A stretch of DNA of 64,000 nucleotides from Thermoanaerobaculia bacterium (GCA_038253555.1 JBBSGZ010000003.1:13-64012), one strand, 5' to 3'. Shown: positions 2,141 through 57,465, numbered from the stretch's first letter. Made by a program: numbers and translations. The notes: generated by a model from the letters alone, not told the origin.

Positions 2141-4432
2141 TCAGGTCCGAAGGCGCAGCAGCAGCCACGTCGCGGCGATCGCGGCGAGCACCGCGGGCGA
2201 CCAAGCGGCGAGGACGGCCGGGAGCGCGCCGACCTCTCCCACCTTCGTGAAAAAAGCGCCCGCGATCAGGAACACCATCCCGAGCCCCAGGCCCACGCCG
2301 ATTCCGGCGAGCGTGCCTTTTTTGCCGATCCGGAAGGCGAACGGAACGGCGAGGAGCGCCAGCAGGGGAATCAGCAGGGGAGTCGAGAGCTTGGCGTGGA
2401 GCGCGGTGTCTAAGACACTCGTCGGATAGCCGCTCGCTCTCAACCGCCGCGCGTAGCGCTGCAGCTCGCGAAACCGCATCTCGTCGGCGCCCCGGCGATC
2501 GCGCGTGAAGGTCTTCGGCGGATCTCCGCCGACGCGCTCCTCGAGATACGTGCGGTAGGAGGCCTCGGATGAGATCCCGAAGGTGCGGCTCCAGCCCTGG
2601 CGCAAGACCCACAGCCTGCCGTCCCACGCCGCTTCCCGAGCCGAGTCGCGCCGCGTGACCTCGAAGCTGTCGGAGAACTGAAACACGCTGGGCGAGAGGA
2701 GGATGCCCTTTTCCGGGTCGGTGGCGTCCTGGTGCCATATCGCGCGGCCGGGCCCGTAGTGCCATCGCCGTTCGGTCGGGGTCGACAGCCCGTAATCCAC
2801 GGGCCGGCCATAAATGATGTTCTTGTATTGGGCCTGTTTCCGCTGAGCCGCCGGGACGATGTACTCGCCCGCCGCGAACGCCAGACCCGCCGCGAGCACG
2901 GCCAGGACAACGATTGGAGCGCCGAGACGATGCAGCGACACGCCGTTTGCGCGAAAAGCCGTGTCCTCGTTGTTGCGCGACAGAATGCCGAGCGCGATCA
3001 GAGTGGAGAGGAGGATTCCGAACGGGGCGATCTGCAGCGAGATCGTCAGGAGAAAATTGCGGTAGTACCCGAGGATGACGTCCGCGCTGGGTCGGTTCTT
3101 CGCGATCTTGTCGATGTGCTCGGCGTAGTCGACGATGACCGCGAGCAGAAGCACCGATGCGGCGACTAAGAAGAACACGGAAAGAAACCGGCCCAGAACG
3201 TACCGGTCGAGAAGGGTGGGGAAGCGCAGGAGACCCGACAGGGCGGACCGGCGCGCCGGTTCCGGGCGCGCCACTTCCGGTTTCTCTCCGGCGGCTCGCG
3301 GCCGCCGCAGAAATCCCCAGCGTCCCCGTTCCCGGCCCCCGCGCACCATGGCGGCTCCGCCGAGACAGAGAAGGACGACGTTGGGAAGCCAGATCGCGAC
3401 CCCTGGAGAAAGCCGCCCTTCCTGCGCCCAGGTCTCCCCGCTCGAGAGCAGCACGTAGTAAAGCACGATCAATGCGAGCGACAGGGCGAAGCCGCTGCCC
3501 CTGCCTCCCCGCCGGGAGGTCTCCGCGAGCGGAATGCCCACGATCGCGAAGGCGAGACACGCGAACGGAATGGAGAGCTTTTTGTGGATCTCGACCCAGG
3601 CCAGGCGGTACTGCTCGGGAGGGAGCTTTGAGCCCTCCCGGACGGTTGCCAGAAGCTCCGACAGCGATTGCGAGCGGAGGGCCTTGTCAAACGAAACCTG
3701 CGTGGAGACGGGATTGCCGACGTCGCCCGCAAGCAGGATTCGCTGCGTTTCGTTGCGGTTGGTGCGGTAACGGGAAGGGTCCGCGGGGTTGAAATCGTGC
3801 AGAGTGGAAGAGACGAGGTCGAGCCAGAGATGGTCGCCTTCGAGGTTCAAGGTCCCTCTGCGGGCGACGATGATCTGCTGCGATTTCTCCTCTTCTCCGA
3901 TCTGAAGAAACACTCCCTCGAGCGAACGCCCGTCGGGAGAGGTCCGGTCGAAGAAGAGCGTCAGGCCCGGCCGGACTTCGCGGAAGGTCCGCGGCTGTAC
4001 GACGTTGACGACCGACGTGGCCGCTACGCGGGCCAGGTTCCGGGTGAGGGTGTCGTTCGCCCTGGGGAGGACCACATTGTAAAAGACGAAGACGACCCCG
4101 GCCAGGACAAACGCCGCCGTCAGGGCCGGCCGGGCGATCGCTCCGGGGCCGGCCCCGCAGGCCCGAAGCGCGACAATTTCGGAATCTCCGGAAAGCCGTC
4201 CGATGCCGATCAAGACGCCGAGGAGAAACGCCATGGGAAGCGTCAGCACGATGATCCAGGGCAGAGACAGAACCACGAGCCACAGAACCTCGGGCAAGGT
4301 GGCGCTGCGCCGGACGAAAAAGTCCGCCAGGAAATAGATCGTCCGCACCAGAAGGATGAACGTGTATGCCGAGAAACCCAGAAGAAACGGGGGCCAGATC
4401 TCGCGCAGTACCGACCGGGAGATGAGGCGCAT
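2141..4432 (-). CDS. lptFG: LPS export ABC permease, LptF-like and LptG-like halves fused in one 763-aa ORF
   Basis: ATG at 4432 (MRLISRSVLREIWPPFLLGF..., typical YjgP/YjgQ N-terminus). A second YjgP/YjgQ-type N-terminus (LLDRYVLGRFLSVFFLVAAS...) follows about 385 codons later in the same frame with no stop between. The 82 upstream codons of the track ORF are Pro/Arg-rich and were discarded. Confidence 0.8.
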   Translation of the reverse strand: MRLISRSVLREIWPPFLLGFSAYTFILLVRTIYFLADFFVRRSATLPEVLWLVVLSLPWIIVLTLPMAFLLGVLIGIGRLSGDSEIVALRACGAGPGAIARPALTAAFVLAGVVFVFYNVVLPRANDTLTRNLARVAATSVVNVVQPRTFREVRPGLTLFFDRTSPDGRSLEGVFLQIGEEEKSQQIIVARRGTLNLEGDHLWLDLVSSTLHDFNPADPSRYRTNRNETQRILLAGDVGNPVSTQVSFDKALRSQSLSELLATVREGSKLPPEQYRLAWVEIHKKLSIPFACLAFAIVGIPLAETSRRGGRGSGFALSLALIVLYYVLLSSGETWAQEGRLSPGVAIWLPNVVLLCLGGAAMVRGGRERGRWGFLRRPRAAGEKPEVARPEPARRSALSGLLRFPTLLDRYVLGRFLSVFFLVAASVLLLAVIVDYAEHIDKIAKNRPSADVILGYYRNFLLTISLQIAPFGILLSTLIALGILSRNNEDTAFRANGVSLHRLGAPIVVLAVLAAGLAFAAGEYIVPAAQRKQAQYKNIIYGRPVDYGLSTPTERRWHYGPGRAIWHQDATDPEKGILLSPSVFQFSDSFEVTRRDSAREAAWDGRLWVLRQGWSRTFGISSEASYRTYLEERVGGDPPKTFTRDRRGADEMRFRELQRYARRLRASGYPTSVLDTALHAKLSTPLLIPLLALLAVPFAFRIGKKGTLAGIGVGLGLGMVFLIAGAFFTKVGEVGALPAVLAAWSPAVLAAIAATWLLLRLRT

Positions 4433-4638
4433 TGTGGAACAAGTTATCAGGAGGTGTGGGAGGGGGCGAGCGGGGCGGGGCGGGGTCAAGGGCGAACGGC
4501 GAAGGGCGAAAGGCGGTTGCGGTTGGGAGCCGGGGCGGATGGGGTGCTGGGTATGGTCGGCGACCGCCCGAGGCCCGACATCCCGGGGTCTGCAAGATCG
4601 CCGGCAGGGTGAATTCGGCGGGTTATCGGGGGAAGGTT

Positions 4639-4739
4639 CCGGATTCTGTGAAGTCCCGCCGGGTCGGCGAGAAGCCACACCGGTGCGCGCCAGATTCGTC
4701 TCGGACCCGCCCAGCGCTGCCGGACTTCACAGAGTCCGG
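4639..4739. repeat. Intergenic inverted repeat (18-nt arms, 17/18 complementary, 65-nt spacer)
   Basis: ccggattctgtgaagtcc (4639-4656) versus ggacttcacagagtccgg (4722-4739). It is flanked by the direct repeat tgcaaGatcgccggcagggtg (4591-4611) / tgcaaAatcgccCggcagggtg (4748-4769). Confidence 0.7.
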
Positions 4740-5040
4740 GGACATTATGCAAAATCGCCCGGCAGGGTGGCTTCTTGAGGCGAACCTGGCCAGGAACCCG
4801 ATCTCGGCGCTCAAGCCTCGAACGGCTGGCGATTTTACATAATGTATCTTATCGGACTCTGGACTGGGGCGCGGGGGCCTCCCGGCGCCCGGGTCATGCC
4901 TGGCCTTGTCGCCCCGGTTGAGCCGTTCGCCGACGTCCGCTCAAGGGGTCTTTCCGCCAAATGGGTTTCGGCGTGGCGTCGAAAGGCGCGTTCCCCGTGT
5001 CCGAGCGTCTTGATGAATCCGCCGCTTCTCGACAGTCGCG

Positions 5041-5898
5041 TCAGTGCGTGGGCTTCGGATCTTCCAATTTGATCTCGCCGCTCTCGAGCTGCTCGATGAT
5101 GTCGCGCAGCGTTTCGATCAGTTCGCTCTTCTCCACTGTAGATTTCTGAAAAGAGAGATTGAGTTTGAACGGCGCTCCCTCGGGTTTGTAGACGAAGGAA
5201 AATCGCGGAGCTCTTTCCGGCAGAGGCGCCCCCTCTTTTTTCTGCGCGCGCAGATCGTCTCGCGTAGATCCCGATGCGACGGCTTCGATGGCGTCGCGCA
5301 TTTTTTCCGGATCGTCCAGTCGCGCGATCTGTAAAAGGACGGAACGCGCCGTGATGTCGGCGCGCCGACATTCATCACGGAGGTCTTCAGGGATTGAGAG
5401 GAGCGTCATCGCTTCCGTCACCGATACGCGCGACTTGCCGACCGAATCGGCGATTTGCTGCTGCGTGTAGCCGTGCTTCGCGGCGAGAGACGAGTACCCT
5501 TCCGCCTCCTCAAAAGCATGAAGATCGCGACGGTGAAGATTCTCGATCAAAGCGATTTCGACGACCTCGTTTTCCGGAACGTCGAGCTCGATGCATGGGA
5601 CTTCCGTCAGGCCCGCTTCCATCGCCGCGCGGAATCTCCTCTCCCCCGCGATGATTCGGAACCTTCCGTCCGCGATCGGCTTGACGAGGAGGGGCTCGAG
5701 GACGCCCCTCGCTTCGATCGATCGTCGCAGCTCGGTCAAATCTCCGACGTTCGTGCGCGGCTGCTCCGGATTGGTTTCGATCTCTTCCATCGAGATCCAT
5801 CGCCCGAGCGAGCCCCCGAATCGCGATGACAGCGATTCGACGAAATGAGAGTCGTGCTGCATCCGCGCCTCCACCGGGAGTCCTCTTCTCTTAGACAC
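5041..5898 (-). CDS. parB: Chromosome partitioning protein ParB
   Basis: IIAGERRFRAA ParB box, HTH region (GYTQQQIADSVGKSRVSVTEAM). GTG start overlaps the parA stop by 8 nt. An alternative ATG lies at 5862. Confidence 0.9.
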   Translation of the reverse strand: MSKRRGLPVEARMQHDSHFVESLSSRFGGSLGRWISMEEIETNPEQPRTNVGDLTELRRSIEARGVLEPLLVKPIADGRFRIIAGERRFRAAMEAGLTEVPCIELDVPENEVVEIALIENLHRRDLHAFEEAEGYSSLAAKHGYTQQQIADSVGKSRVSVTEAMTLLSIPEDLRDECRRADITARSVLLQIARLDDPEKMRDAIEAVASGSTRDDLRAQKKEGAPLPERAPRFSFVYKPEGAPFKLNLSFQKSTVEKSELIETLRDIIEQLESGEIKLEDPKPTH

Positions 5899-6646
5899 GG
5901 GACAGCACCTCCTCGGAAAGGGAGTAATACTCCGCCGCCCCGCTCGAGCGCGGCGCGAAAGTAAAGATCGATTCTCGATGCGCCGGACTCTCTTCCAAAC
6001 GCACGCTTTTTGAAATGGTGGTTTTGAAGACCTTGTCGCCGAAGACGGTCGCGATCTGCTCGTAGACGTCTTTTCCGATGACCGTGCGGCGGTCGTGCAA
6101 CGTGACCACGACGCCGAGAATTCGCAGCGTCGGGTTCGGCCGGGCTTTGATCTTCTCTATGGTTTCGAGCAGATCGTCCGTCCCTTCCAGGGCGAAGTAT
6201 GAGGACTGAATCGGGATCAGGATGTGGGAAGACGCGACCATCGCATTTACCGTGATCATCCCCAGAGTGGGAGGGGTGTCGATCAGGATCGCGTCGTAGT
6301 CGCTTCTTGCTCCGTCGATTTTGTCACGCAGGCGGAAGTGCCCGTCGATCTCTCCCAGGAGCTTCGACTCGATTTTGGCCAGCGCAATGCGCGCCGGGGC
6401 GATGTCCAGATTGGGGACCTCGGACTTGCGGACCACGTCCTGGAGCGAAACGGTGGATTCCGTGAGCACATCGAACATTGACTTGTCGACAGTCCGCCGG
6501 TCGACGTACGACATGGTGCTGTTCGCCTGAGGATCCAGGTCGATGAGCAGGGTGCGCATCCCCTTGGAGGCGAGTGCGGCGGCGAGGTTGATGGCCGTGG
6601 TTGTCTTGCCGACGCCACCCTTTTGATTCGTGACGGAGATGATCAC
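5891..6646 (-). CDS. parA: Chromosome partitioning ATPase ParA/Soj
   Basis: Deviant Walker A NQKGGVGKTTTAINLA, followed by LIDLDPQANST. Sits immediately upstream of parB. Confidence 0.95.
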   Translation of the reverse strand: MIISVTNQKGGVGKTTTAINLAAALASKGMRTLLIDLDPQANSTMSYVDRRTVDKSMFDVLTESTVSLQDVVRKSEVPNLDIAPARIALAKIESKLLGEIDGHFRLRDKIDGARSDYDAILIDTPPTLGMITVNAMVASSHILIPIQSSYFALEGTDDLLETIEKIKARPNPTLRILGVVVTLHDRRTVIGKDVYEQIATVFGDKVFKTTISKSVRLEESPAHRESIFTFAPRSSGAAEYYSLSEEVLSRV

Positions 6647-6713
6647 CGGGGAAGAAAGTATCAGTTCTCAGTTTCGAGTTCGCGATGTTTGTCCGCCGAA
6701 GCGGGGCGCCCTT

Positions 6714-6743
6714 AAAAAAAGACACGGATGCGGATCACATCCG
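6714..6743 (-). terminator. Possible intrinsic terminator overlapping the stop of the BFN gene
   Basis: On the minus strand: CGGATG-tgatccg-CATCCG stem-loop (6743-6725), then tgtc plus a T7 run (plus-strand A-run 6714-6720). The stem is only 6 bp. Confidence 0.45.
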
Positions 6744-7214
6744 GTATTTGCCGAGGTCCTCCGGATTCACTTCTTCCAGCCACTTCTTCAGCTTCTCGGG
6801 ATCCGAGGCCCCCTCGGCACGGATCGTCTTGCTGCGCTCTAAGACGTCTTCTTCCACGAAGATCTCCGCCTGCGCGCGCAGCGCCAGAGCGATCGCGTCA
6901 CTCGGGCGGCTGTCAACCGTCCACCGCTCTTCGCCTCGGGAGAGATGAAGGCGGGCAAAAAACGTGTTCTCTTTGAGCTCGTTGACCACGATCCGATCCA
7001 CGTGTACTCCGAGCGTAGCGAGGACATTGTGGAGAAGATCGTGGGTCATAGGGCGCGGCGCCTGGATCTTCTCCATCTCGATGGCGATCGCGTTGGCCTC
7101 GAAAATCCCCACCCAGATCGGCAGGAATGCCCCGTCGTTCTGGTCCCGAAGAATGACCACCGGCATGTTGCTCACCGGGTCCATCAGAAGGCCTTTGATC
7201 TCCATTTTCACCAT
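6735..7214 (-). CDS. Bifunctional nuclease domain (BFN/DUF151) protein
   Basis: The whole length resembles DUF151 proteins (PVVILRD...FLPIWVG..EA.AI......RPMTHDL......V..V.I..L...TF.A.L......VD.RPSDAIALALR). An alternative ATG lies at 7205. Confidence 0.8.
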   Translation of the reverse strand: MVKMEIKGLLMDPVSNMPVVILRDQNDGAFLPIWVGIFEANAIAIEMEKIQAPRPMTHDLLHNVLATLGVHVDRIVVNELKENTFFARLHLSRGEERWTVDSRPSDAIALALRAQAEIFVEEDVLERSKTIRAEGASDPEKLKKWLEEVNPEDLGKYRM

Positions 7215-8605
7215 GGGTGCTCCTCCGGGAGACCGACCGAGGGCGTTCGTAACGGGATCCGGGCGATCAGGGAGTTGGGCAATCCCCGGACGATCTCCAC
7301 GTCGACGTAGCTTCCGGGGGCCGCGGCTCCGTCGCCGTTTTCGATGTGGACCACGCGGTTGCAGGCGGTTCGCCCCCGCAGGAGACCTTTGCGGTCGAGG
7401 TTCTCCACAAGGACCTCGAACCGCTGGCCGACCAGGCTGCCATTGATCTCCGCCTGAATCTGCTCCTGAAGAGCGAGGAGCCGGGCCAGTCTTTCCCCCG
7501 CGACTTCCCCGGGTATTTCCTGCTCACTCCCCCACCGCGCGGACGCGGTCCCAGGACGCGGCGAGTATCGGAACGCAAACACGTGGGCAAAGCGCGCCTC
7601 GCGCATCAGGGAGAGCGTGGCGTCAAAGTCTTCTTCCGTCTCTCCCGGGAAGCCCACGATGAAGTCCGAGGAGAGAGCGATTTCCGGCACGGCCCGTCGG
7701 AAACGTTCGATCGTCGCCATGTACCCGGCCCTGTCGTACCGCCGCTTCATCCGATAGAGAATCCGGTCCGATCCGGACTGCGCGGGGAGGTGAAGGTACG
7801 GAGCGACGGGGATTCCCGCCGCCATGGCCTCTACTAAAGAGTCGTCCACGAGGCTCGGGTGCGACGTAATGAAACGCAGACGCCGCAGACCCGGCACCCG
7901 GGCGGCCCTGCGCAGAAGCTCTCCCAGGCCGAACTTCTCGTCAGGATCCAGGTACGCGTTGACGGTCTGTCCGAGGAGCATGACCTCTCCGTGGCCGCCT
8001 TCGACGAGGGAGCGCACCTCGGCTAAGATCTCCGCCCCGCGCCGACTGCGTTCCCGGCCCCGGGTAAATGGCACGATGCAGAAAGTGCAGAACTGATCGC
8101 AGCCCTCGATAACGGTCACGAACGACTGAAAGGGCGAGCCGCGCCGGATCTGATCGAACCGATAAACCGGAGAATCCGTTGGGAGGTCCGTCGCCAGGAT
8201 CCGGCGCCGCTCGCGGCGGATCTCCTCCACGATTTCTCCCGCGCGTTCGATCTGTCCGGTGCCGAGAACGAAGTCGACGAAGGGCGCGCGCTCCAAGATC
8301 TCGTCCTTTTCGACCTGGGCGACGCAGCCCGTGACGCCGATCACCATCTCGGGATGCTCGCGTTTCCGGCGGGCCAGGACACCCAGAGCGCTGTAGACCT
8401 TGGCCTCCGCCTTTTCGCGTACCGCGCAGGTGTTCAAGAGCACGATGTCGGCATCCTCGTGATCGCCGGCGGGGAGATACCCCCGCCCGTCGAGCTGTCC
8501 GGACATCCGTTCGCCGTCCAGGACATTCATCTGGCAGCCCCAGGTTTCCACCCTGTACGTGCCGTAACAAGCTGATTTTGAACCGTTTATTACCACAGAA
8601 CTCAT
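7208..8605 (-). CDS. miaB: tRNA-i6A37 methylthiotransferase MiaB
   Basis: UPF0004 N-terminal domain (YRVETWGCQMNVLDGERM), radical-SAM CDQFCTFC, C-terminal TRAM-like region. ATG at 8605 overlaps the upstream stop (ATGA). The 41 upstream codons of the track ORF were discarded. Confidence 0.9.
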   Translation of the reverse strand: MSSVVINGSKSACYGTYRVETWGCQMNVLDGERMSGQLDGRGYLPAGDHEDADIVLLNTCAVREKAEAKVYSALGVLARRKREHPEMVIGVTGCVAQVEKDEILERAPFVDFVLGTGQIERAGEIVEEIRRERRRILATDLPTDSPVYRFDQIRRGSPFQSFVTVIEGCDQFCTFCIVPFTRGRERSRRGAEILAEVRSLVEGGHGEVMLLGQTVNAYLDPDEKFGLGELLRRAARVPGLRRLRFITSHPSLVDDSLVEAMAAGIPVAPYLHLPAQSGSDRILYRMKRRYDRAGYMATIERFRRAVPEIALSSDFIVGFPGETEEDFDATLSLMREARFAHVFAFRYSPRPGTASARWGSEQEIPGEVAGERLARLLALQEQIQAEINGSLVGQRFEVLVENLDRKGLLRGRTACNRVVHIENGDGAAAPGSYVDVEIVRGLPNSLIARIPLRTPSVGLPEEHPW

Positions 8606-47824: not shown

Positions 47825-50278
47825 TCAGAACGCCGCCGTGTCCGCCACGCTCGCGAGCTGTCCCGAAGGGTTCGAATACGTCTTCACCTGCCCGGTCTGA
47901 GTGTCCGTCACGGTGATCGTGTACTGGACGTCGGAAAGGGCGCCGTAGAAGACCCAGAACTTGTTGTTAAACGCCCGCCCGTCGACGACCTTGATGACGA
48001 GCTCCACGTTGTTCGAGGAGAAAAACCAGAAGTAGCCGGTGTCGCCGGTGAGCGCGACCGCCGTCCCCTGCCCGCTCGTCCCCTGCGAAGGCACCTGCCA
48101 GCGGACCTGGACGGTGAAGCGGCTCGCGTTGAGACACAGAGTCTGGGCATTCCCGGCGCAGGCCGCAAGGGCTTCCGCCGACTCGGCGCGCCGCGACGTC
48201 GAAGACTCCTTTTCCCCGGAAGGATCGGTCGCGGAAAGGCTGTCCTCCGCCGGCTGGTCCGGCGCCGCGACGAAAGCTGCCGTGGCTGGAGTCGCGGTGG
48301 CGCCCGCGAACGCGGCGGTGTCGGCGACGCTCGCCAGGTTGCCGCTCGGATTGACGTAGGACTTGATCGTTCCCGTCTGGGTGTCCGTCACCGTGATCGT
48401 GTACTGGACGTCCGAGAGAGCGCCGTAAAAGACCCAGAACTTGTTGTTGAAGGCGCGGCCGTCCACGACCTTGATGACGAGCTCGATGTTATTGCTCGAG
48501 AAGAACCAGAAGTAACCGGTGTCACCGGTCACCGGCACGGCGGTCGCGGCGCCGCTCGTTCCCTGCGACGGAACACTCCAGGAGGCCTGCACCCGGAACC
48601 GGCCCCCGGTCAGACAGAGGGCGGTCGCGCTCGCCGTGCACGGCAGCGTCGCCGCGCGAGAGACTGCGCCGAGAGCGTCGACCTTTCCGTACCCCCACGT
48701 TGTGTTCGGGACGGTTCCCGTGAACGCATCCGACTTCGCCGTCTGCTGCAGAATCTGCTTGACCTGCGCCGCATCGAGCGAGGGGTTCGCCTGGAGCATC
48801 AGGGCGATGATCCCGGTCACCGTGGGGGCCGCCGAGCTGACGGCGTTGGCGATGCCGTAGAGACCGTTCCCATCGCGAATCAGGTTGCCCCGGAAGGTTG
48901 CGTAGTACGATTTGGGGTTATAGGTCGTGACGAGGTTGGAACCGGGCGCGCTCACGTCGACCCCGAGCCGCCCATCGAACGTCGGCCCGATGCTGCTCCC
49001 CTTCCAGATCTCGCCCGGATTTCCTTCTCCGACCAGGCTTCTGGCAACTCCGTCGATGTCCGTCCACGTCGTCTTGTTGATGTAGGCGTTGGGAGAGATG
49101 TTGTTCCGCGCGGCGGCGACATCCCAGACGCTTCCCGCCTCCACGTTGGTGAGGAATCGGTTCGCGTTGAAAGGCGCGCGGATCATCGCCGGATTCAGGA
49201 TGGCGTGAAACCGCCCGGACGTGACGGTCGAGCCCGTGAGCGTCACCGTATAGGTCGCGGCGGGACCGGTCAGCCGGATGAAGATCTGGCGTTTTCCGGT
49301 CTGCGCGCCCCAGGAAGTCACCCCGGACCCCCGGTGGTCGTAGAAAAAGTCCGAGGTCTGCTGGGTGTTCAGGTCCAGGTTGGCGGCGGGCGACGTGTAG
49401 GGTCCAAACGTCCCCGACGGACCCTGAATCGTCACGTTCAAACGGTCGGTGTCGGGATACCACGCCTCGAAGGCGAGGGGGTTCGTGCCGTCGCCCTTCT
49501 GGATCTGAATTGCGACCGAGCCGGATTGCGGCACCGTCCCGCCTGCGCGATTGTCGACCCCTCCGTCGTCTCCCGGTCCGTTGACGAAGACCAGTCCCGG
49601 GATCCCCGGTCCGACCGTCGCGTCGACCTTCCGGGCCAGGTCGCTCGTCCCATCCGTCGGACCGCCCTGCGATCCCAGATTCAGAAGCATCACGGCGGGC
49701 TGGCCGAGCTCACGCGCCTTGTCTCGAACGAAATTGATGGCGAGTGGAATGCGCGCGGGCTGATAAAAGGCGGTCTCCGCGGCCTCGCCGTCGTGGGCGG
49801 GCACTCCGTCGGAGGTGACTTTGACGGCAATGATCGTGGCTTCGGGGGCGATCCCTCTGTACTTGCCGCCGGCGATGTTTCGCCCGTTCCCCGCCGCGAT
49901 TCCGGAGGTCGTCGTGCCGTGTCCGACCGCGTCACGGGTGGCGAGGGTCGTCCCGCTGGCGAGCGCCTGGTTGATCTGCGCCCGCGTGTAGATGGTTCCG
50001 AGAGCATACGTATTGCCGGGGGCGGTGGCTCCGCTGTCGTCGGTGAGGTCGAAAATGTAGGCGATGCGCGTCGTTCCGTCCTCGTTTCGGAAATCCGCGT
50101 TTTTCCAGTCGATTCCCCGATCGAGGAGAGCCACGATGACCCCGCGGCCCGTCACGCCGAACTGAGCGACGGCCGCGTCCACGCCCGTCTTCTGCCGCAC
50201 CTGGTCCATCGAAAAAGCCGGAGAGACCAGGAGGCACGAGGACAGCGCGAGAAAGAGGATCCGGCGGAGGTTTTTCAC
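47825..50278 (-). CDS. Secreted subtilisin-like serine protease (peptidase S8) with duplicated C-terminal module
   Basis: GTG at 50278 with AAGGA about 8 nt upstream, giving the signal peptide VKNLRRILFLALSSCLLVSPAFS. Catalytic contexts ALLDRGID, HGTTTSGIAAG, VSSAAPTVTG. Two 104-aa C-terminal repeats. Confidence 0.85.
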   Translation of the reverse strand: MKNLRRILFLALSSCLLVSPAFSMDQVRQKTGVDAAVAQFGVTGRGVIVALLDRGIDWKNADFRNEDGTTRIAYIFDLTDDSGATAPGNTYALGTIYTRAQINQALASGTTLATRDAVGHGTTTSGIAAGNGRNIAGGKYRGIAPEATIIAVKVTSDGVPAHDGEAAETAFYQPARIPLAINFVRDKARELGQPAVMLLNLGSQGGPTDGTSDLARKVDATVGPGIPGLVFVNGPGDDGGVDNRAGGTVPQSGSVAIQIQKGDGTNPLAFEAWYPDTDRLNVTIQGPSGTFGPYTSPAANLDLNTQQTSDFFYDHRGSGVTSWGAQTGKRQIFIRLTGPAATYTVTLTGSTVTSGRFHAILNPAMIRAPFNANRFLTNVEAGSVWDVAAARNNISPNAYINKTTWTDIDGVARSLVGEGNPGEIWKGSSIGPTFDGRLGVDVSAPGSNLVTTYNPKSYYATFRGNLIRDGNGLYGIANAVSSAAPTVTGIIALMLQANPSLDAAQVKQILQQTAKSDAFTGTVPNTTWGYGKVDALGAVSRAATLPCTASATALCLTGGRFRVQASWSVPSQGTSGAATAVPVTGDTGYFWFFSSNNIELVIKVVDGRAFNNKFWVFYGALSDVQYTITVTDTQTGTIKSYVNPSGNLASVADTAAFAGATATPATAAFVAAPDQPAEDSLSATDPSGEKESSTSRRAESAEALAACAGNAQTLCLNASRFTVQVRWQVPSQGTSGQGTAVALTGDTGYFWFFSSNNVELVIKVVDGRAFNNKFWVFYGALSDVQYTITVTDTQTGQVKTYSNPSGQLASVADTAAF
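47828..48139 (-). repeat. C-terminal module of the S8 protease, copy 2 (coding repeat)
   Basis: 87 of 104 residues are identical to the copy at 48308-48619 (my count). Long identical DNA runs, e.g. gacccagaacttgttgtt and ccttgatgacgagctc. Confidence 0.9.
48308..48619 (-). repeat. C-terminal module of the S8 protease, copy 1 (coding repeat)
   Basis: See 47828-48139. The 480-nt period includes a 56-aa Ala/Ser/Glu-rich linker. Confidence 0.9.
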
Positions 50279-50438
50279 GAAAAATTCCTTTTTACCGCGT
50301 GGCGCGGAACGTCTGATGGGAACGAGCAGCGATGGCTGAGGTGCGGTGACGGGAGTCGTCTCAGGATGGATCGAATGTCGGGAAACTATCATGTCGGACC
50401 GTCGGAAACCGGGCGATGGACGCGCCGCGATCGGCGAT

Positions 50439-51089
50439 TCAGGACTTTTTCCCGGCCCTGCTTTCGTCTTTCGGAAGGTCGGCAAGGCCGAGCGTTCTCC
50501 GCACTGCGCGGAAGTACTGCACCGGTTCCTCCCGCCAGGCTTTCTCCTGCGCCCAGGCCGGAAACTTTCCTCCGAGATCTCCCAGATAGGTGTACGTCAG
50601 CCGGCAGGAGTCGGCGCCGGCGGGTTCGACGCGCGTTTCCCCGGAGACGCGCTCGATCGGCGTGCCTTCGCGTTTGTCCCCGGGCCGCGCGTCCGATTTC
50701 CAGGACAGCAGGTACGCGCCGCCTCCGAACTCCTCGATCCGATACCGTACGACGGCGTCCCGGTTCGTGTAGGGAAACGGGTAAGGCCACACGAAATGAA
50801 TCCGCGCCGAGGCACGGTCTGCCTCGAGGATGTCGGCTTTTTTCACCGCGGGAGAGAAGAGCTCCCGATAGTGCGGGAAGTCAGACAGGGCGGCGGCGAC
50901 CCTGGACGCGGGGGCCGGAATCTCCCCGCTGCTTCGGAGCCAGGGCGGGCCGGCCGGCGAACGGGCGATCCGGACCTCGACGCCTCGGGATGTGAACCAG
51001 GGGACGAACTCGACGTCCGCTGGAGCGGCTCCCCCAAGGGCGAGGACGACGGCCGCGAGAGCGAAGTCGGACAGGACGCGGCTCTTCAT
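50439..51089 (-). CDS. Secreted START/SRPBCC-like (helix-grip, lipid-binding type) protein
   Basis: ATG at 51089 (ATGA overlap). Signal peptide MKSRVLSDFALAAVVLALGGAAPA. START-like landmarks PYPFPYTNRDAVV, ERVSGETRVEP, LGDLGGKFPAWAQEK. Confidence 0.6.
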   Translation of the reverse strand: MKSRVLSDFALAAVVLALGGAAPADVEFVPWFTSRGVEVRIARSPAGPPWLRSSGEIPAPASRVAAALSDFPHYRELFSPAVKKADILEADRASARIHFVWPYPFPYTNRDAVVRYRIEEFGGGAYLLSWKSDARPGDKREGTPIERVSGETRVEPAGADSCRLTYTYLGDLGGKFPAWAQEKAWREEPVQYFRAVRRTLGLADLPKDESRAGKKS

Positions 51090-51556
51090 GCCGGCCTCGA
51101 GGCGGGAGACCTCGGCGTCACGAGCACGAGGGCGCCGCACAGGGCGGAAAGGATCAGGTCTTCGATCACGGTCGACCAGCCGAGGGGCCTCGGGAGGAAA
51201 ACGCCGAAGCAGCCGCAGTTGGCGAGCCGAAGGCCCCGGAGGATCGCCGAAGCCGACCAGGCGGCGTACCCGAGATGCATCCCGAGCGCCGCGACGGCCG
51301 CCGCAAACGGACGCCGCCCGACCACCAGCCAGATGGCCAGCGCGAGCTCCGCGGCGGGGACGAGGACCGCCAGAGGAAGGAGCAGCCCGTCGGGAAAGGC
51401 GTGGTAGGTGGCGAGGACCCGGGCGAAGCCCGGAACATCCAGGAACTTACCGACCGCCGTGACGAAGAGGATGAATGCGATGAGCGCGCGAAGAATGTTT
51501 CCAGTCCTTCGTTTCCCCGGGCCCGACTCCCGATTCCCGCCCGCGCGTCCCGTCAC
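51086..51556 (-). CDS. MauE/DoxX-like membrane protein
   Basis: Four hydrophobic helices and the NCGCFG motif characteristic of MauE-type proteins. GTGA overlap with the upstream stop. Confidence 0.65.
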   Translation of the reverse strand: MTGRAGGNRESGPGKRRTGNILRALIAFILFVTAVGKFLDVPGFARVLATYHAFPDGLLLPLAVLVPAAELALAIWLVVGRRPFAAAVAALGMHLGYAAWSASAILRGLRLANCGCFGVFLPRPLGWSTVIEDLILSALCGALVLVTPRSPASRPA

Positions 51557-52335
51557 CTCTGGTTCAGGGTCCAGTCGTAGGGAATGAACTCGACCTTCGC
51601 GCCCTCCGGGATCTTCGCTTCGCGGTACCTGTTCGCGTAGGCGACGAGCGACGGCGATTTCTTCAGAAAGTCCTCCGTGTAGAACTGGAGGATCTGCGAG
51701 AAACGAACGTTCCGCGTGTCCGCCGCCACCTGCACGTTGCGGTCCTCATTCAAAAAGTACTGCGCCGTCGCCTCGAGCTCCATTTCGAGCTGGTCGGCCC
51801 GGAACGGCTCCCGCGGAAGGCGAGGACAGCCCCGCACCATGCAGTTCAACGCGAAGTGCACCCGCGGGTCTCCCATCGGACGAACGACCTTGTTCTCGAG
51901 GTCGTACAGCGACATCTTCTCGCCGCCGACAGCCAGCTTGTTTCGGTAGAAGAACCGGACCTTGACGGCGTTCAAGTCCTTCGGCTGCCCGGACTCGATC
52001 ACGTTGTACATCGCGAGCGCGTTATAGGCGTTCAGGTAATACGCCAGCTTCGATTCCTTCGTCGGGAAGGACGCGGGCGTAGTCGCGGGGCTCACCCGCC
52101 CGATCCAGGCCACGTACGCGTCCAGATCCGCGCGGTCTTTCGCGATACCCGCGAAGTCGATCCGTCCCGTCTCGTCGACGTACTTCGAAAGGACTCGCGC
52201 CCACGTCCGATCCGCTTCGGCAGGCGTCGCTGCCGCCGCGGGCCCGGTGGAAGCGCCCCGCGGCGCCGCGACGTTGACCGCGCAGGATGCGGCGAAAACG
52301 AGAATGAGCGGGAAAAGGGGCGCGATTTTTCTCAT
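51553..52335 (-). CDS. DUF547-family protein, probable lipoprotein
   Basis: ATG at 52335 (ATGA overlap). Signal MRKIAPLFPLILVFAASC. DUF547-like core (AYYLNAYNALAMYNV..., DPRVHFALNCMVRGCPRL). Confidence 0.7.
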   Translation of the reverse strand: MRKIAPLFPLILVFAASCAVNVAAPRGASTGPAAAATPAEADRTWARVLSKYVDETGRIDFAGIAKDRADLDAYVAWIGRVSPATTPASFPTKESKLAYYLNAYNALAMYNVIESGQPKDLNAVKVRFFYRNKLAVGGEKMSLYDLENKVVRPMGDPRVHFALNCMVRGCPRLPREPFRADQLEMELEATAQYFLNEDRNVQVAADTRNVRFSQILQFYTEDFLKKSPSLVAYANRYREAKIPEGAKVEFIPYDWTLNQR

Positions 52336-53627
52336 GCGAGCTGTTTTCCTCCGAGCGGACGCCCCGGAAGAACCGGCAGGGTCGCTCCCGACAGGGGATT
52401 CCAGAGGCCCTCCCCCGCTTCGGTCGAGACAGAGAGAGGCTTCAGGATGAACTCGTCCCGCTTCGCGTTGTGAGCGCACATCGAGACGGGGCCGTTCGCG
52501 GTCATCACCATGAAGGAGCAGGCGTGGATTCGGTCGGCCTCGAGGGCCGTCGCGTCCATGAAGTTCTGGACGAAAAAGGAGAGCTTGTGCACCCGGCCGC
52601 TCGAGGCGAGGAGATCCCGCCGCATGTTCCACAGCTTGCGTCCGGCAAACCGCAGCGCCTGCCAGGCAAAGCCCGGCTGGCGGCGGACCTCGGAGAGGAG
52701 AGCGGAGACGGCGCGGCGAGGTTCCCGGCGGTCGAGCATCACGTGCTGGAAATCAGCCAGGAACCGGTTGAAGAACTCGGGATCGTCGTTCAAGTCATAC
52801 AGGTTGCCGTTGGCTTCGAGCGTGATTCCGATGCGGTGACAGCCCGGATGCCCGATTAAGATCGTGTCCCAGGAGATCGGGATCTCCGCTCCGCTCACGA
52901 TCTGTTCCCGCACCGTCTGAAGCGAGATCACGCGATCTCGTTCCCGCAGGACGCCGCGGCCGGTGTCCGCCTGCAGCTGGAAGGAGGCCATGCCGACGAC
53001 GTCGGCGTGCCGGCGGAAGAACCGGACCATGTCGGGGATCTCGTCGAAGTTCTCGCGGCACACGGTCGTATTGAAGATCACCGCGATCGGGATCCCCCGG
53101 GCGCGTTCGATGTACTCCTCGCGGATAGGGTTCAAGTCCGCTTCGGTCCGGTAGCCCTTGCGCTCCTGGGTGACGTCCACGTGGAAGGCGACGTCGTTCA
53201 AACCGGCCGCCGCGAGCTCTTCGAGCATGTCCCGCGTCGCCTTGATCCCGTTGGTCATCAGCGTCGGCAGGAGCCCCTTTTCGCTTGTATAGCGCACGAT
53301 TTCGACGAGCTCTTCGCGCTTGCGCAGGGTCGGATCGCCTCCGGTGATCTGCACGGCGGTGGGGGCCCCGTACTGCTCGGAGATCCGGTCGATCCGCCGG
53401 AGGACCTCCTGGAGGGGGATGTCTTTGACCCGCTCGGAGTTTTCGGACAGGTAGCAGAGAGTGCAATCCAGATTGCACCGCTGCGTGATCTCGAGGGCCA
53501 CGCATCCGATGGAGTTCCTGCGGCCCAGCACCTGATTCGCCTGGAACAGCGGCCCCATTCTTTTGCGGGCCCTGTCCAGGGCGGCCGAACGGGTTTCTCT
53601 CGGAGAAGGAAGAGGAAGGGCGCTCAT
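52332..53627 (-). CDS. Radical SAM enzyme with an atypical C-terminal domain
   Basis: AGGAGG 5 nt upstream of the ATG. CNLDCTLC cluster motif, ITGGDPTL. About 200-aa C-terminal extension ending in FMDATALEADRIHACSFMVMTANGPVSMCAHN. Confidence 0.85.
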   Translation of the reverse strand: MSALPLPSPRETRSAALDRARKRMGPLFQANQVLGRRNSIGCVALEITQRCNLDCTLCYLSENSERVKDIPLQEVLRRIDRISEQYGAPTAVQITGGDPTLRKREELVEIVRYTSEKGLLPTLMTNGIKATRDMLEELAAAGLNDVAFHVDVTQERKGYRTEADLNPIREEYIERARGIPIAVIFNTTVCRENFDEIPDMVRFFRRHADVVGMASFQLQADTGRGVLRERDRVISLQTVREQIVSGAEIPISWDTILIGHPGCHRIGITLEANGNLYDLNDDPEFFNRFLADFQHVMLDRREPRRAVSALLSEVRRQPGFAWQALRFAGRKLWNMRRDLLASSGRVHKLSFFVQNFMDATALEADRIHACSFMVMTANGPVSMCAHNAKRDEFILKPLSVSTEAGEGLWNPLSGATLPVLPGRPLGGKQLA

Positions 53628-53918
53628 CAGGCCTCCTGAACAGGTCCGCCGGCCGTCGATTGACCGGGACCGAAAACTTTTCGTACATCATACGGTGGAA
53701 CATTCCGATACGGATGTCTTCCGTCGCTTCCTCGACTGCCCGCCCCGCCGTGGCCGTCCCGTGAAAGCCGGGCGCCATTTCGCCGGCTATCCTCGCCCCA
53801 AAAGCGCCTCGGGGAAGGGCGATCCGGAGAGGATGGAGAGGCCGGCAAGAGCGCCGGATCTCTCACCCTGCCCGTCCCCCGGCGGGGCGAAACCTTTTCT
53901 CCCTCCCGCCGTCTCCCC

Positions 53919-54518
53919 TTGTGCCGTGCCGGACCGGGCTTGATCGAAAAAACCGCGGGAACGGACGATCGCCACCTGATCGAACGTATCCGGCTGGGCG
54001 ATCCAGACGGCGCCGGCGAGCTCTTCGAGAAGTATTCCGGCGCACTGCTGCGCTTTGCGGACCGGCTTCTGTCCGATCGGGCCATGGCGGAGGAAGTCAC
54101 TCAGGAGGTTTTCGTCAAAGTGATCACGCGGGCGCACCAATACGACGGCCGGGCGGAGGTCTCCTCCTGGCTCTTCGCGATCGCGGCGAACGCGTGCAGA
54201 GACCGCCGTCGACGGGACCGCCGGGCGAACGTGGTGCCCCTCGAGGCGGTGCCCGAACCGACGTCGAAGGGCGAGGGCATCGAAGCCCGCCTGCTGAGCC
54301 GCGAGCGCCGCGCCGCCGTGCGCGAAGCGTTGAGCGCTCTTTCGGCCGAACAGCGGGAAGCGCTCGTTCTCGCCCGCTACCACGGGCTCCCCTATTCCGA
54401 GATTGCGGGCGTGCTCGGCATCTCGGTCGGAGCCGTCAAAACCCGCATCTTCCGGGCCGTCGAAACCCTGAAGGCCCGTTTCCACGAAGGAGAAGCCGCA
54501 TGGAATGCCGCGAACTGA
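53919..54518 (+). CDS. ECF-type RNA polymerase sigma factor
   Basis: Sigma-70 region 2 (AEEVTQEVFVKV, SSWLFAIAANACRD) and region 4 HTH (LPYSEIAGVLGISVGAVKTRIFRA). TTG start at 53919 or 53940. Confidence 0.85.
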   Translation: MCRAGPGLIEKTAGTDDRHLIERIRLGDPDGAGELFEKYSGALLRFADRLLSDRAMAEEVTQEVFVKVITRAHQYDGRAEVSSWLFAIAANACRDRRRRDRRANVVPLEAVPEPTSKGEGIEARLLSRERRAAVREALSALSAEQREALVLARYHGLPYSEIAGVLGISVGAVKTRIFRAVETLKARFHEGEAAWNAAN

Positions 54519-55447
54519 CCGCGCTGGCCCTGGATGGCAAGCTTTCCGACGCTCCCGGTCCGATCCGCGAGGAGGTGGCCGCCCACTGCGAAGGGTGTGC
54601 CGCGTGCCGGGCGGAACTGGAAACTCTCGAGAATGCGTGGGCCCGCCTCGGCGAGGACGCCGACCTGCCCGTGACGCCCGAGTTCGGCCGCCGGACGCTG
54701 GCCCTTCTGGAGGACGAGATGCTCCGATCGCGCATCCGCGCGTTCTCTCCGGGGCGGACCCGCCACTGGACGCGTCCGGCGCTTCAGGCTGCCGCCCTTC
54801 TCGTCGCCGCGGTCGCCGGATTTGCGGCGGCGCGGCAGCTGCCGTCCCCGTCGGCGGGCCGCCCGTCCGAGAAAACGGCCTCGACCGGCGTGCCGCAGAG
54901 TCTCGGAAAAGCGTCCGGGCTCGCGAACGTGGCGTACCGGCCGGCCGACGCGCAGGGCCGCATCGGAGTCAGCTTCGACGTGACTTCGCGCGAAACGGTC
55001 GTTGGCCGCCCGGATGACCCGCAGATGGCGCGACTGATCGCGTTTTTAGTCTCCCGCGGCGCCCAGACCGCCGGCGAGAGGTCTCGCGCCATCGACCTCG
55101 TGTCCGCCAACTACGGCGTCAGGGAGTCTCCCGCCTCGCCGGACATCGTGCTCGCGCTCACGAACACGCTGAAGAAAGATCAGAACCCGGGCGTGCGAAA
55201 AAAGGCGGCCGACGCGCTCGCTGGCTTTCGGATGACTCCCGAGATCCGCGCCGCTTTTCTAGACGCGCTGCGCACCGACCGTCATCCGGGAGTGCGGCTG
55301 GTCGCGGTCGAGGCCCTGGCGGCCGCGGCGAAAGATTCGCCGGACCGCAAGACCATCGAATCGCTTCGCGAGAAGGCCTTTGATCCTGCGGAAAACGGGT
55401 TCGTCCGGGCCCGGGCGGCGTCGGCTCTGAAAGGCATTGAATTCTGA
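54500..55447 (+). CDS. Anti-sigma factor (zf-HC2) with TM helix and periplasmic HEAT-like repeats
   Basis: The ATG at 54500 overlaps the sigma gene by 19 nt. H-x3-C-x2-C (AAHCEGCAAC). TM segment LQAAALLVAAVAGFAAA. C-terminal NPGVRKKAADALAG / HPGVRLVAVEALAA / NGFVRARAASALKG repeats. Confidence 0.75.
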   Translation: MECRELTALALDGKLSDAPGPIREEVAAHCEGCAACRAELETLENAWARLGEDADLPVTPEFGRRTLALLEDEMLRSRIRAFSPGRTRHWTRPALQAAALLVAAVAGFAAARQLPSPSAGRPSEKTASTGVPQSLGKASGLANVAYRPADAQGRIGVSFDVTSRETVVGRPDDPQMARLIAFLVSRGAQTAGERSRAIDLVSANYGVRESPASPDIVLALTNTLKKDQNPGVRKKAADALAGFRMTPEIRAAFLDALRTDRHPGVRLVAVEALAAAAKDSPDRKTIESLREKAFDPAENGFVRARAASALKGIEF

Positions 55448-55488: not shown

Positions 55489-57465
55489 ATGAACGACAAT
55501 TCCCGGCGCGCCTTCTCCGCCCGGCGGACTTCCGAGTCCGACGGTCCTGGTCTCTGGATCGTTTTCGCGATCGGACTTCTGCTGATGCTTGCGGCGTCCC
55601 TCCTCCGCGCGGACGACGCCGGAAACGTGGCGCGCAGGACCGAACGATTCAGCGCCACGCTCCCGGCCAGATCGACGCTGCGCGTGTTGAACGTCTCCGG
55701 CGACGTCATCGCCACTCCCGGCCGGGAGTTCTCGGCCGTCTGCCAGACGAGCGTCACGGCTTCCTCGAAGGCGCGCGCCGAAGAATTCCTGGCGCGCACG
55801 CGTACGGTCGAGGTCCGCGACGGAGACGATCTGCGGCTGGAATCCCGGTGGCCCGACATGGGCGAGGAGAGCTCGTGGCCGTCCCGCTCGTCGCGCCCCG
55901 GCGCCTGGCGCACTTCGTCCCGCTGCCGCGACTGCCGCATCACGATGCAGTACGAGGTCGTTTTGCCGCCCGGAGTCATGGCCGTGCTCCATACCGTCAA
56001 TGGCGAGGTGCGGATTCAGGACATCGACGGCGAGCTCGACGCGCAAACGGTGAACGGCAACGTGACGGTCCGGGGCTCGCGGCGCGGAGTGCGCGCGCAG
56101 ACGGTCAATGGAAGAATCGAGGTCGTGGCGGCGAGCGCCCCGCAGGGCGCGGTGCTCGACTTGAGGACCGTTTCGGGGGGGATTCTGCTGACCCTCCCGA
56201 AGGAGACGCGGTTTGATCTTGCGGCCTCCTCGATGAACGGATCGATCGTCTCGACGTTTCCGTTCACTCCGGCAAAGCTCGGTGGAGCGGTTCCCGAACC
56301 GCCGGTCGTCGCCGACACCGACCGCGCGGAACGTCGGGCGCGCGCCGAACGCGCGCGGCCTCATCACCACGTGGTCGTCGAACGAAAGGGCGATGACACC
56401 GTCGTCGACGTGCCGGAGCTCGAACGGGAGCTCGAGGAATCGATGAAGGACATCGACGTGCAGGTGCGTGAGTCCCTTCGCGACGCCGACCGGCAGATCG
56501 GACGCATGAAGTTTCTGATGCCGGGGGGCGAGTACAAGGGATCGACCGGGCAGGGCGGCGCGCGTGTGCGCGTATCGACTCTGACCGGCAGGATCGCGAT
56601 TCTCGCGGCGAACACGCGGGAATCGGAGGCGAAACCGCTCGTCGAGCGGCGCTCGTTCGTCGTGACGATCCCGCGCGTCGAGGTCCGGGGAGGCGACATC
56701 CAGGTCCGGGTTCCCCGCGCTCCCCGCCCGCCGCGCCCCCCGCGCGCGATGGGCCACGATCCCATGCGCGACGCCGACCACCCGGAAGACGAGGCCGTCG
56801 TCCGCGGAGACGTCGCCGGAGACTTTCTCGCGACCGCGGGCGCGGGGACATATCGCGTCGGAAGGGTGTCGGGGAAGGTCAACATCCTCACGCACTCCGG
56901 CGAAATCCACGTCGGTGCTGCGGGTTCGTCGGCGGACCTCAAGACCTACGGAGGAGACATCCAGATCGGTCCTGTTTCGGGGGACTTGAAGGCGCAGACT
57001 CTGGCCGGGGACATCCGAGCGGGCGCCGTCAACGGAGCCGTCTCGGCGGACACGTCGGGCGGGAATGTCCGCATCGATCGGATCGGGGGATCGGCGGTCG
57101 TCAAGACGGGCGGCGGAGACGTCGTCCTCCCGGCCGTGGGCGGCGGTGTGCACATCGAGACGGGTGGCGGAGAAGTCCGTGTGGGCCTCACCGGTCGGGA
57201 GGCGAAGGGCGGCGTCACCATCCGGAATGCGGGCGGAGACGTCACGCTGACTCTTCCCGCCAACTTCCGCGGGGAAATCGAGCTGACGGCCTCGGACGCC
57301 GATCTCGACGAGACGGCGATCCGCTCGGACTTTCCTGAGGTCACTGTGACCCGCCGCTCCGGATCGCAGCAGGCGACGGCCACCTTGAACGGCGGCGGTC
57401 CGCGGGTCACCGTGAGGACCTCGTCGGGATCGATCCGGATTCGCCGCGGGTCAAACGCCCGGTAA
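55489..57465 (+). CDS. Membrane-anchored protein with two DUF4097-like (putative adhesin beta-helix) regions
   Basis: N-terminal TM helix (LWIVFAIGLLLMLAASLL). Recurrent TVNG.V.., T.SG.I.. and GGDV.L strand motifs in both halves. Confidence 0.65.
   Translation: MNDNSRRAFSARRTSESDGPGLWIVFAIGLLLMLAASLLRADDAGNVARRTERFSATLPARSTLRVLNVSGDVIATPGREFSAVCQTSVTASSKARAEEFLARTRTVEVRDGDDLRLESRWPDMGEESSWPSRSSRPGAWRTSSRCRDCRITMQYEVVLPPGVMAVLHTVNGEVRIQDIDGELDAQTVNGNVTVRGSRRGVRAQTVNGRIEVVAASAPQGAVLDLRTVSGGILLTLPKETRFDLAASSMNGSIVSTFPFTPAKLGGAVPEPPVVADTDRAERRARAERARPHHHVVVERKGDDTVVDVPELERELEESMKDIDVQVRESLRDADRQIGRMKFLMPGGEYKGSTGQGGARVRVSTLTGRIAILAANTRESEAKPLVERRSFVVTIPRVEVRGGDIQVRVPRAPRPPRPPRAMGHDPMRDADHPEDEAVVRGDVAGDFLATAGAGTYRVGRVSGKVNILTHSGEIHVGAAGSSADLKTYGGDIQIGPVSGDLKAQTLAGDIRAGAVNGAVSADTSGGNVRIDRIGGSAVVKTGGGDVVLPAVGGGVHIETGGGEVRVGLTGREAKGGVTIRNAGGDVTLTLPANFRGEIELTASDADLDETAIRSDFPEVTVTRRSGSQQATATLNGGGPRVTVRTSSGSIRIRRGSNAR

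Follow-up and report, generated by a model that had tools for sequence, protein, structure and literature searches.

A radical-SAM/DUF547 gene module of Thermoanaerobaculia and other bacteria: a candidate envelope lipid-modification system with arsenosugar gene neighbours

What could be the function of a radical-SAM enzyme whose gene is translationally coupled to those of three proteins of the cell envelope? The question is raised by a locus on the minus strand of a 64,000-nucleotide stretch of DNA from a Thermoanaerobaculia bacterium (GCA_038253555.1 JBBSGZ010000003.1:13-64012), the whole of which was analysed and is referred to here as the window. Four open reading frames (ORFs) follow one another in the order radical-SAM enzyme, DUF547 protein, MauE-like protein and START-like protein (Table 1), and they are chained by three 4-nt start/stop overlaps, namely ATGA at 52332-52335 for the radical-SAM/DUF547 junction, GTGA at 51553-51556 for DUF547/MauE and ATGA at 51086-51089 for MauE/START. 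Coordinates and overlaps are as given in an earlier note made from the sequence alone, which regarded the four genes as a candidate lipid-modifying envelope system. All four products are recognised by Pfam (Radical_SAM 69 bits, DUF547 80, MauE 78 and Polyketide_cyc2/SRPBCC 38), and hydropathy gives the enzyme no transmembrane segment, the DUF547 and START-like proteins one N-terminal hydrophobic segment each and the MauE-like protein a polytopic topology. The reading that we favour, with a probability of roughly 40%, is that the operon is an envelope lipid-modification module which functions in the ArsS/TIGR04283 arsenosugar (organoarsenical) pathway, and as such a candidate arsenolipid branch of that pathway. 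The finding is new in that, in the literature searched, a lipid-type radical-SAM system has not been described before in this partnership or in this context.

The enzyme itself carries CNLDCTLC (CX3CX2C; residues 51-58), GGDPTL and the C-terminal stretch FVQNFMDATALEADRIHACSFMVMTANGPVSMCAHN, and Pfam finds nothing in it but Radical_SAM and Fer4_12. A SPASM pattern, of which the earlier note likewise saw no obvious sign in the C-terminal extension, is not detected by Pfam, and the NCBIfam matches to SPASM families are confined to the N-terminal core. Four cysteines beyond the SAM-cluster motif are however conserved in the family alignment (C42, C263, C370 and C384), and as these suffice for one auxiliary Fe-S cluster they probably hold one. 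Among NCBIfam profiles the top match is TrsS with 103.9 bits against a cutoff of 490 (residues 41-388 on profile positions 86-431 of 441), followed by Tes (NF045702) with 94.9 bits against a cutoff of 450, for which the match links residues 43-232 to positions 88-281 of the 486 in the profile and thus takes in the N-terminal half only. The enzyme has 50 residues ahead of the radical-SAM motif, and positions 1-87 of the Tes profile remain unmatched. Lower scores and core-only matches are obtained for MoaA, AhbD, NirJ, PqqE, viperin and other characterised non-lipid families, so that the profile search proposed in the earlier note puts no such family first. Since the scores for TrsS and Tes are both far below the curated cutoffs, the enzyme belongs, as far as profiles can tell, to neither of them nor to any characterised non-lipid family, and no NCBIfam model covers it or its DUF547 partner.

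In a sequence search of the PDB the sole strong match is GDGT-MAS, 7TOL (1.5e-23), and the second domain reported by HMMER aligns residues 364-404 with residues 453-494 of 7TOL (MJ0619) in such a way that C370 and C384 fall on cysteines; the C-terminal FMDA…C…C.HN motif of which they form part does not vary within the family. Modelled by AlphaFold on the basis of 51 homologues (predicted local distance difference test, pLDDT, 87; predicted template modelling score, pTM, 0.88), the enzyme has 7TOL/7TOM as its best Foldseek match, with an E-value of 8.6e-14 and a query-based template modelling score (TMq) of 0.61 over 411 columns, whereas the matches that follow (viperin at 5e-6, SkfB and HydE) are eight orders of magnitude weaker and cover the TIM-barrel core only. 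The resemblance of the C-terminus to MJ0619/Tes, which the earlier note had put forward, is thereby borne out by sequence and by fold. A Tes-type classification of the enzyme holds for the fold and the C-terminal motif, but not for membership of the family, in view of the score (95 against 450 bits) and the missing N-terminal extension. The public names of homologues are in conflict with one another ('pyruvate-formate lyase-activating enzyme', 'MoaA', '7,8-dihydro-6-hydroxymethylpterin dimethyltransferase' and 'tetraether lipid synthase'), and the last of these labels could mislead surveys of producers of glycerol dialkyl glycerol tetraethers (GDGTs) or their branched forms (brGDGTs).

Features in common with GDGT-MAS/Tes (MJ0619; 7TOL/7TOM; NF045702) are thus the core with the radical-SAM CX3CX2C motif, a predicted fold that is similar from end to end and, near the C-terminus, the FMDA…C…C-x-(H/Y)-N motif, both cysteines of which align; the enzyme is likewise soluble and expected to act on membrane-embedded substrates. 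It differs from them in that the identity is about 20%, in being some 60-100 residues shorter and without the N-terminal extension, and in being bacterial and paired with exported DUF547 and MauE proteins, partners that Tes does not have. Furthermore, its four extra cysteines compare with a fuller set of auxiliary metal sites in GDGT-MAS, which has two auxiliary clusters and a rubredoxin-like site. TrsS (NF045646), although the best-scoring curated profile and matched over nearly its full length, is set apart by the score (104 against 490 bits), by the absence of the first 85 profile positions and by selenocysteine, which the window enzyme lacks as there is no in-frame TGA; no true TrsS member was found among the 150 best representatives.

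The DUF547 protein scores 80.3 bits against the Pfam (PF04784) cutoff of 27, the lipobox cysteine Cys18 is invariant in the family alignment, and a motif H-x-A-L-N-C-x4-C-P, present in the window as HFALNCMVRGCPRL, is near-invariant across loci. Its predicted structure is of good quality (pLDDT 91.5), and comparison with the PDB by profile and by fold gave no meaningful match; a literature search likewise found no functional account of DUF547. Plant class IV glutaredoxins are GRX-DEP-DUF547 fusions (PMC13621322). Given also its invariant Cys pair, DUF547 may be a protein that depends on thiols and is kept active by a redox partner, which in bacteria would be MauE. The MauE-like protein (77.7 bits against the PF07291 cutoff of 27) carries NCGCFG, a motif found in 34 of 34 members, and in the window the CGC at residue 114 follows TM3, the third transmembrane segment, on what hydropathy and the positive-inside rule predict to be the periplasmic side. 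The fourth protein matches Polyketide_cyc2 with 38.3 bits (cutoff 27.4) and START (PF01852) with 20.3 bits, just below the cutoff of 22, and its residues 35-205 match the STAR-related lipid transfer protein 3QSZ at 1.9e-9. The earlier note's description of the three partners, a DUF547 protein with a lipoprotein signal, a MauE-like protein with NCGCFG and a secreted START/SRPBCC protein, is consequently in agreement with the family alignment, the profiles and the hydropathy. The combination of a small polytopic membrane protein bearing cysteines with an exported Cys-pair protein is reminiscent of the MauE/MauD, DoxX and DsbB/VKOR relays, but the partner is here DUF547 and not a thioredoxin-fold protein, there are no amine dehydrogenase genes, and the redox role is putative.

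Is the set of four then the functional unit? When one genome was scanned for each species, 355 relatives of the radical-SAM enzyme were found, of which the best 79 loci were retained, their neighbours being mapped by tblastn and ORF clustering in flanks of about 6-8 kb. The loci come from Thermoanaerobaculia/Acidobacteriota, Bdellovibrionota, Nitrospinota and Alpha-, Beta- and Gammaproteobacteria, they include those of the cultured Roseomonas sp. CCTCC AB2023176 (L046), Plastoroseomonas arctica LMG 28251 (L065) and Alteromonas sp. S167 (L074), and the window falls within Thermoanaerobaculia, where one locus is 99% identical. DUF547 adjoins the radical-SAM gene in 70 of the 79, in at least five phyla or classes, MauE is adjacent in 34, and the START protein occurs in about 20, all of them thermoanaerobaculial. 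Outside this class the START slot is taken by a secreted chalcone-isomerase-like protein (Chalcone_3; 11 loci, a signal peptide in all). Two gammaproteobacterial loci without MauE have other genes in the vicinity, one (L064) a cytochrome b561-YceI fusion at 4585-5805 directly upstream of the radical-SAM gene and the other (L074) a PepSY_TM protein at 4116-4658, one gene further away, and these may be non-homologous replacements in membrane redox and in lipid binding, though each is a single locus. The arrangement is not due to chance, since the synteny recurs in dozens of genomes, and because the pair is near-constant across phyla while MauE and START are partial, the conserved unit is radical-SAM plus DUF547, with MauE and an exported hydrophobic-ligand binder as frequent accessories. 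The earlier view of the four genes as one unit therefore stands as regards synteny in relatives, but the full quartet is specific to Thermoanaerobaculia and MauE is optional. That the binder families appear interchangeable in the accessory slot supports the notion that a hydrophobic product is handled outside the cytoplasm. No described system of such composition was known to the earlier reader, and a literature search agrees, having found no account in which DUF547 is brought together with radical SAM or with arsenosugar.

Several loci depart from the common pattern. Some genomes, among them one metagenome-assembled genome (SMAG_U4688, with L021 and L054), contain two radical-SAM paralogues, one an orphan in the sigma context and the other near a reversed DUF547-MauE-START set; paralogous or duplicated genes are also seen in L044, L056, L057 and L059, and several Gammaproteobacteria have a DUF547 gene on both sides of the radical-SAM gene. 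Relatives of the P0091 type are orphans without DUF547. An apparent radical-SAM/DUF547 fusion, P0092, proved to be a frameshift artefact with the radical-SAM C-terminus in the wrong frame, and P0245 is likewise doubtful. MerA-like pyridine-nucleotide disulfide oxidoreductases adjoin the module in six loci (L032, L052, L059, L016, L054 and L055), and the reductase has an N-terminal VTT/DedA fusion in L059 (e.g. 6216-8432) and L032 and probably in L052. A lycopene cyclase lies within about 2 kb downstream of the radical-SAM gene on the same strand in two unrelated lineages (L086-L090, e.g. L090:10468-11741, and L028:4274-5985); the two enzymes are non-homologous, of the PF18916 domain type and the FAD-type PF05834 respectively, and they hint at an isoprenoid-type substrate. 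The small secreted proteins encoded before the cyclases in L090 and L028 were considered as a shared partner and dropped, as they are not homologous to each other.

The strongest functional clue lies outside the window and could not be seen by the earlier reader, namely the recurrent embedding of the module in ArsS/TIGR04283 clusters. At least one arsenosugar-pathway gene is found within about 6 kb in 16 of the 79 unbiased loci, which on the radical-SAM tree fall into six clades or more, and in Bdellovibrionota and Gammaproteobacteria the radical-SAM/DUF547 pair is interleaved with several such genes. ArsS (TIGR04167) adjoins the module or lies inside it in eight loci, scoring 420-455 bits against a cutoff of 300 in six of them (L042, L044, L030, L031, L091 and L093) and being assigned by tblastn in L036 and L056. 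The TIGR04283 'arsenosugar biosynthesis' glycosyltransferase is found above cutoff directly upstream of the radical-SAM gene in L014, L016, L087, L091 and L093, and in L085-L094 its scores are 224-238 bits. The window's own class is included, since three of its loci, whose radical-SAM enzymes are 76-77% identical to that of the window, have this glycosyltransferase directly upstream (L014 186.9, L016 189.6 and, below the cutoff of 182, L019 179.3 bits), and L016, at 77% identity, has the complete order glycosyltransferase, radical-SAM, DUF547, MauE and START. Further neighbours of arsenic type are an ArsM-like methyltransferase, an inosine-uridine nucleoside hydrolase, ArsC and the TIGR04169 peroxidase-like protein, and in betaproteobacterial loci a rhodanese gene lies immediately upstream of the radical-SAM gene. 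The fullest cluster of arsenosugar type is L093:2902-9590, with glutathione peroxidase, TIGR04169, ArsS, DUF547, the TIGR04283 glycosyltransferase, an Omp85-like outer-membrane protein and the radical-SAM enzyme. An exhaustive search of protein-cluster representatives yielded one predicted glycosyltransferase/radical-SAM fusion, P0241, and a metagenome scan seeded with it revealed a further lineage in which DUF547, the glycosyltransferase and radical-SAM are adjacent genes, with ArsS in two of its loci.

ArsS is established to adenosylate dimethylarsenite, converting DMAs(III) to 5'-deoxy-5'-dimethylarsinoyladenosine (PMC13598754), and bacterial arsenolipids have been suspected in the ocean (bioRxiv 10.1101/2021.03.22.436501). 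ArsS belongs to a different radical-SAM family, with a DUF3641 C-terminal domain, and it acts on arsenic and not on lipid. The neighbourhood centred on it (TIGR04167, TIGR04283, TIGR04169 and ArsM) has orthologues of the window module embedded or adjacent in many lineages, including the sister clade of the window, whereas none of its genes occurs in the 64 kb of the window; conversely, a Tes-like radical-SAM enzyme, DUF547, MauE and START are not among the members of the arsenosugar pathway as described.

From the homology, the fold, the topology signals and the conserved order and neighbours of the genes, which are what the analysis shows, we infer a substrate, a chemistry and a direction of electron flow as follows. 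By means of the 5'-deoxyadenosyl radical the cytoplasmic GDGT-MAS-like enzyme would activate an unactivated C-H in a membrane lipid, or in an intermediate linked to lipid, and a new bond would form there; in the arsenic-linked genomes the partner in that bond would be an organoarsenical produced by ArsM, ArsS, the nucleosidase and the TIGR04283 glycosyltransferase. The product would then reach the outer face of the inner membrane, where the DUF547 lipoprotein may act on it or bind it by way of its CX4C thiol pair, which MauE, through NCGCFG, would recycle against the membrane redox pool. The secreted START protein, whose place would be taken in other phyla by a protein of the chalcone-isomerase-like or YceI type, may finally ferry the hydrophobic product across the periplasm. 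An envelope lipid-modification module in the arsenosugar pathway is favoured because the enzyme is closest over its full length, by fold as well as by sequence, to the lipid-coupling GDGT-MAS, because three unrelated exported binders of hydrophobic ligands (START, Chalcone_3 and b561-YceI) fill the operon slot, and, as to arsenic, because ArsS/TIGR04283 neighbours recur over at least six radical-SAM clades. A more specific proposal, that the Tes-like enzyme is the missing arsenolipid synthase, which by chemistry of the GDGT-MAS type at an unactivated lipid carbon would link a lipid chain through a C-As or C-C bond to an organoarsenical derived from ArsM/ArsS, with DUF547 as its thiol-dependent extracytoplasmic processing partner, we consider doubtful.

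Several observations weigh against our reading. The lipid substrate is argued from a structure of 20% identity and from carrier-protein neighbours, and about 10 loci have the radical-SAM gene but not DUF547. Searching the 64 kb of the window by tblastn gave no ArsS, ArsM, TIGR04283 glycosyltransferase, ArsC or MerA-like gene, so that the arsenic link of this genome is by orthology only. In 63 of the 79 unbiased loci the flanks of about 6 kb are free of arsenic genes, and the module may therefore serve a broader role. The neighbours TIGR04283, TIGR04169, ArsM-like and ArsC-like are moreover named by association or score below cutoff, ArsS being the sole biochemically characterised member among those of arsenic type, and the P0241 fusion is unconfirmed at the DNA level, the related metagenome loci having separate adjacent ORFs.

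The alternative that survives best, unlikely as we hold it to be, is a generic coupling or modification of lipid tails that does not involve arsenic, a reading near to that of the earlier note, yielding a membrane-spanning, branched, ether-type or other lipid and in Thermoanaerobaculia perhaps under the envelope-stress control of an extracytoplasmic function (ECF) sigma factor. The GDGT-MAS fold with its common C-terminal motif is in keeping with this notion, as are the START, chalcone-isomerase-like and YceI carriers of the operon, the lipid enzymes near some loci (an FA_hydroxylase in L037 and the two unrelated types of lycopene cyclase in L028 and L086-L090), the VTT/DedA-reductase fusions found as neighbours, the conserved divergent ECF sigma unit and the absence of ars genes from most loci. 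It is however difficult to reconcile with the low and N-terminally confined Tes score and the missing N-terminal extension, and likewise with the presence of the family in aerobic Acetobacteraceae, Alteromonas and Burkholderiales, for which we know of no report of membrane-spanning lipids. The spread into aerobic Proteobacteria argues against the tetraether or membrane-spanning role suggested in the earlier note. In addition, the ECF-type promoter points toward the sigma gene and not toward the operon, and the repeated adjacency of ArsS and TIGR04283 in multiple clades is left unexplained.

Improbable, in our judgement, is a periplasmic thiol-redox or metalloid system with DUF547 and MauE at its centre, handling for instance arsenic, selenium or sulfur species, in which the product of the radical-SAM enzyme would be a small non-lipid molecule or a cofactor. 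Such a system would account for the conserved Cys motifs of DUF547 and MauE, the plant GRX-DUF547 fusions and neighbours such as rhodanese, ArsC, MerA-like disulfide reductases, glutathione peroxidase and AhpD-like proteins, and it agrees with a selenoprotein, TrsS, being the nearest NCBIfam profile and with the occurrence of other transmembrane electron carriers in MauE-less loci (cytochrome b561 in L064 and PepSY_TM in L074), although the latter evidence comes from one locus each; it does not, however, explain why the full-length structural match of the enzyme is a lipid enzyme, nor why three families of lipid-binding carriers have been recruited to the operon. Very unlikely, finally, is a maturase that modifies the co-translated DUF547 or another exported protein before export, in the manner of the anaerobic sulfatase maturases or of the Mau/Qhp systems, where proteins of the MauE type help in maturation, since, even if translational coupling, the near-universal pairing with DUF547, the invariant Cys pair of the latter and the naming of MauE after methylamine-dehydrogenase maturation speak for it, the enzyme lacks the SPASM/twitch domain that many peptide- and protein-modifying radical-SAM enzymes carry, its fold resembles GDGT-MAS and not anSME or QhpD, DUF547 with its Cys motif is widespread and occurs in eukaryotes that have no radical-SAM enzyme of the window type, some loci have two DUF547 copies or none, and the arsenosugar and lipid-carrier neighbours are unaccounted for.

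Lipids that contain arsenic, among them arsenosugar lipids, arsenic fatty acids and arsenic hydrocarbons, are widespread in the food webs of the sea and bear on food safety, and to our knowledge their biosynthesis is understood no further than the steps of ArsM and ArsS. The module, by which a Tes-like lipid enzyme is placed within arsenosugar clusters, is a concrete candidate for arsenolipid synthesis, and one that is genetically testable, as cultured carriers exist in Roseomonas, Plastoroseomonas and Alteromonas. If an envelope lipid-modification module is indeed what these genes encode, radical chemistry of the GDGT-MAS type would extend to ordinary bacteria, DUF547, found also in the plant class IV glutaredoxins, would gain a first functional foothold, and proteins of the MauE/DoxX type would gain a defined partner. 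The labels 'tetraether lipid synthase' and 'dihydro-6-hydroxymethylpterin dimethyltransferase' on relatives are in any case unfit for inferring brGDGT producers in environmental surveys.

Table 1. Coordinates of the operon and of the divergent sigma unit, counted from the first letter of the window.
Feature	Position	Strand	Remarks
START-type (SRPBCC) lipid-binding protein, secreted	50439..51089	(-)	216 aa
MauE/DoxX-type polytopic membrane protein	51086..51556	(-)	156 aa; NCGCFG invariant, predicted periplasm-facing
DUF547 lipoprotein	51553..52335	(-)	260 aa; lipobox Cys18; predicted fold without solved counterpart
Radical-SAM enzyme	52332..53627	(-)	431 aa, cytoplasmic; distinct subfamily related to GDGT-MAS/Tes and TrsS
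Conserved block CCGTATGATGTACGAA (also given as CCGTATGAT)	53680..53695	(-)	about 50 nt before the radical-SAM start; common to Thermoanaerobaculia loci
ECF-type promoter-like motif GAAACCTT-N13-CGTCTC	53889..53915	(+)	oriented to the sigma gene, away from the operon
ECF sigma factor, divergent	53919..54518	(+)	kept as neighbour in about 20 Thermoanaerobaculia loci
Putative anti-sigma protein, C-terminal HEAT repeats	54515..55447	(+)	start overlaps the sigma stop codon
DUF4097 'toastrack' protein	55489..57465	(+)	third gene of the conserved divergent sigma unit

As to how the operon is expressed, the AGGAGG in front of the radical-SAM gene (AGGAGGcctgATG) is separated from the ATG by 4 nt and the gap to the divergent ECF sigma ORF measures 291 bp, where the earlier note had 5 nt and 290 bp. 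The block CCGTATGATGTACGAA, which is followed by a conserved GGAGG ribosome-binding site, is probably a promoter -10 region or an operator. The notion that the operon is a target of the divergent ECF sigma factor was tested, but the ECF-type motif was found toward the sigma gene only, and in an alignment of the intergenic regions the operon block is unlike the autoregulatory motif of the sigma factor; sigma control of the operon is for these reasons unproven. Rfam returned nothing for the operon and its leader, a sigma-70 promoter scan found none, and terminator matches were at the level of shuffled sequence.

At the other end of the operon, related loci have M50, TrpRS and ScpA/B genes directly after it, and in the window an S8 protease gene intervenes between the operon and those genes (M50, ScpA and ScpB) that come next in relatives, an insertion which confirms the boundary of the four-gene operon. 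This S8 subtilase gene (47825-50485, minus strand), inserted relative to the related loci, encodes at its C-terminus (about 47828-48640) two near-identical copies of a domain of about 105 aa, …GDTGYFWFFSSNNxELVIKVVDGRAFNNKFWVFYGALSDVQYTITVTDTQTG….

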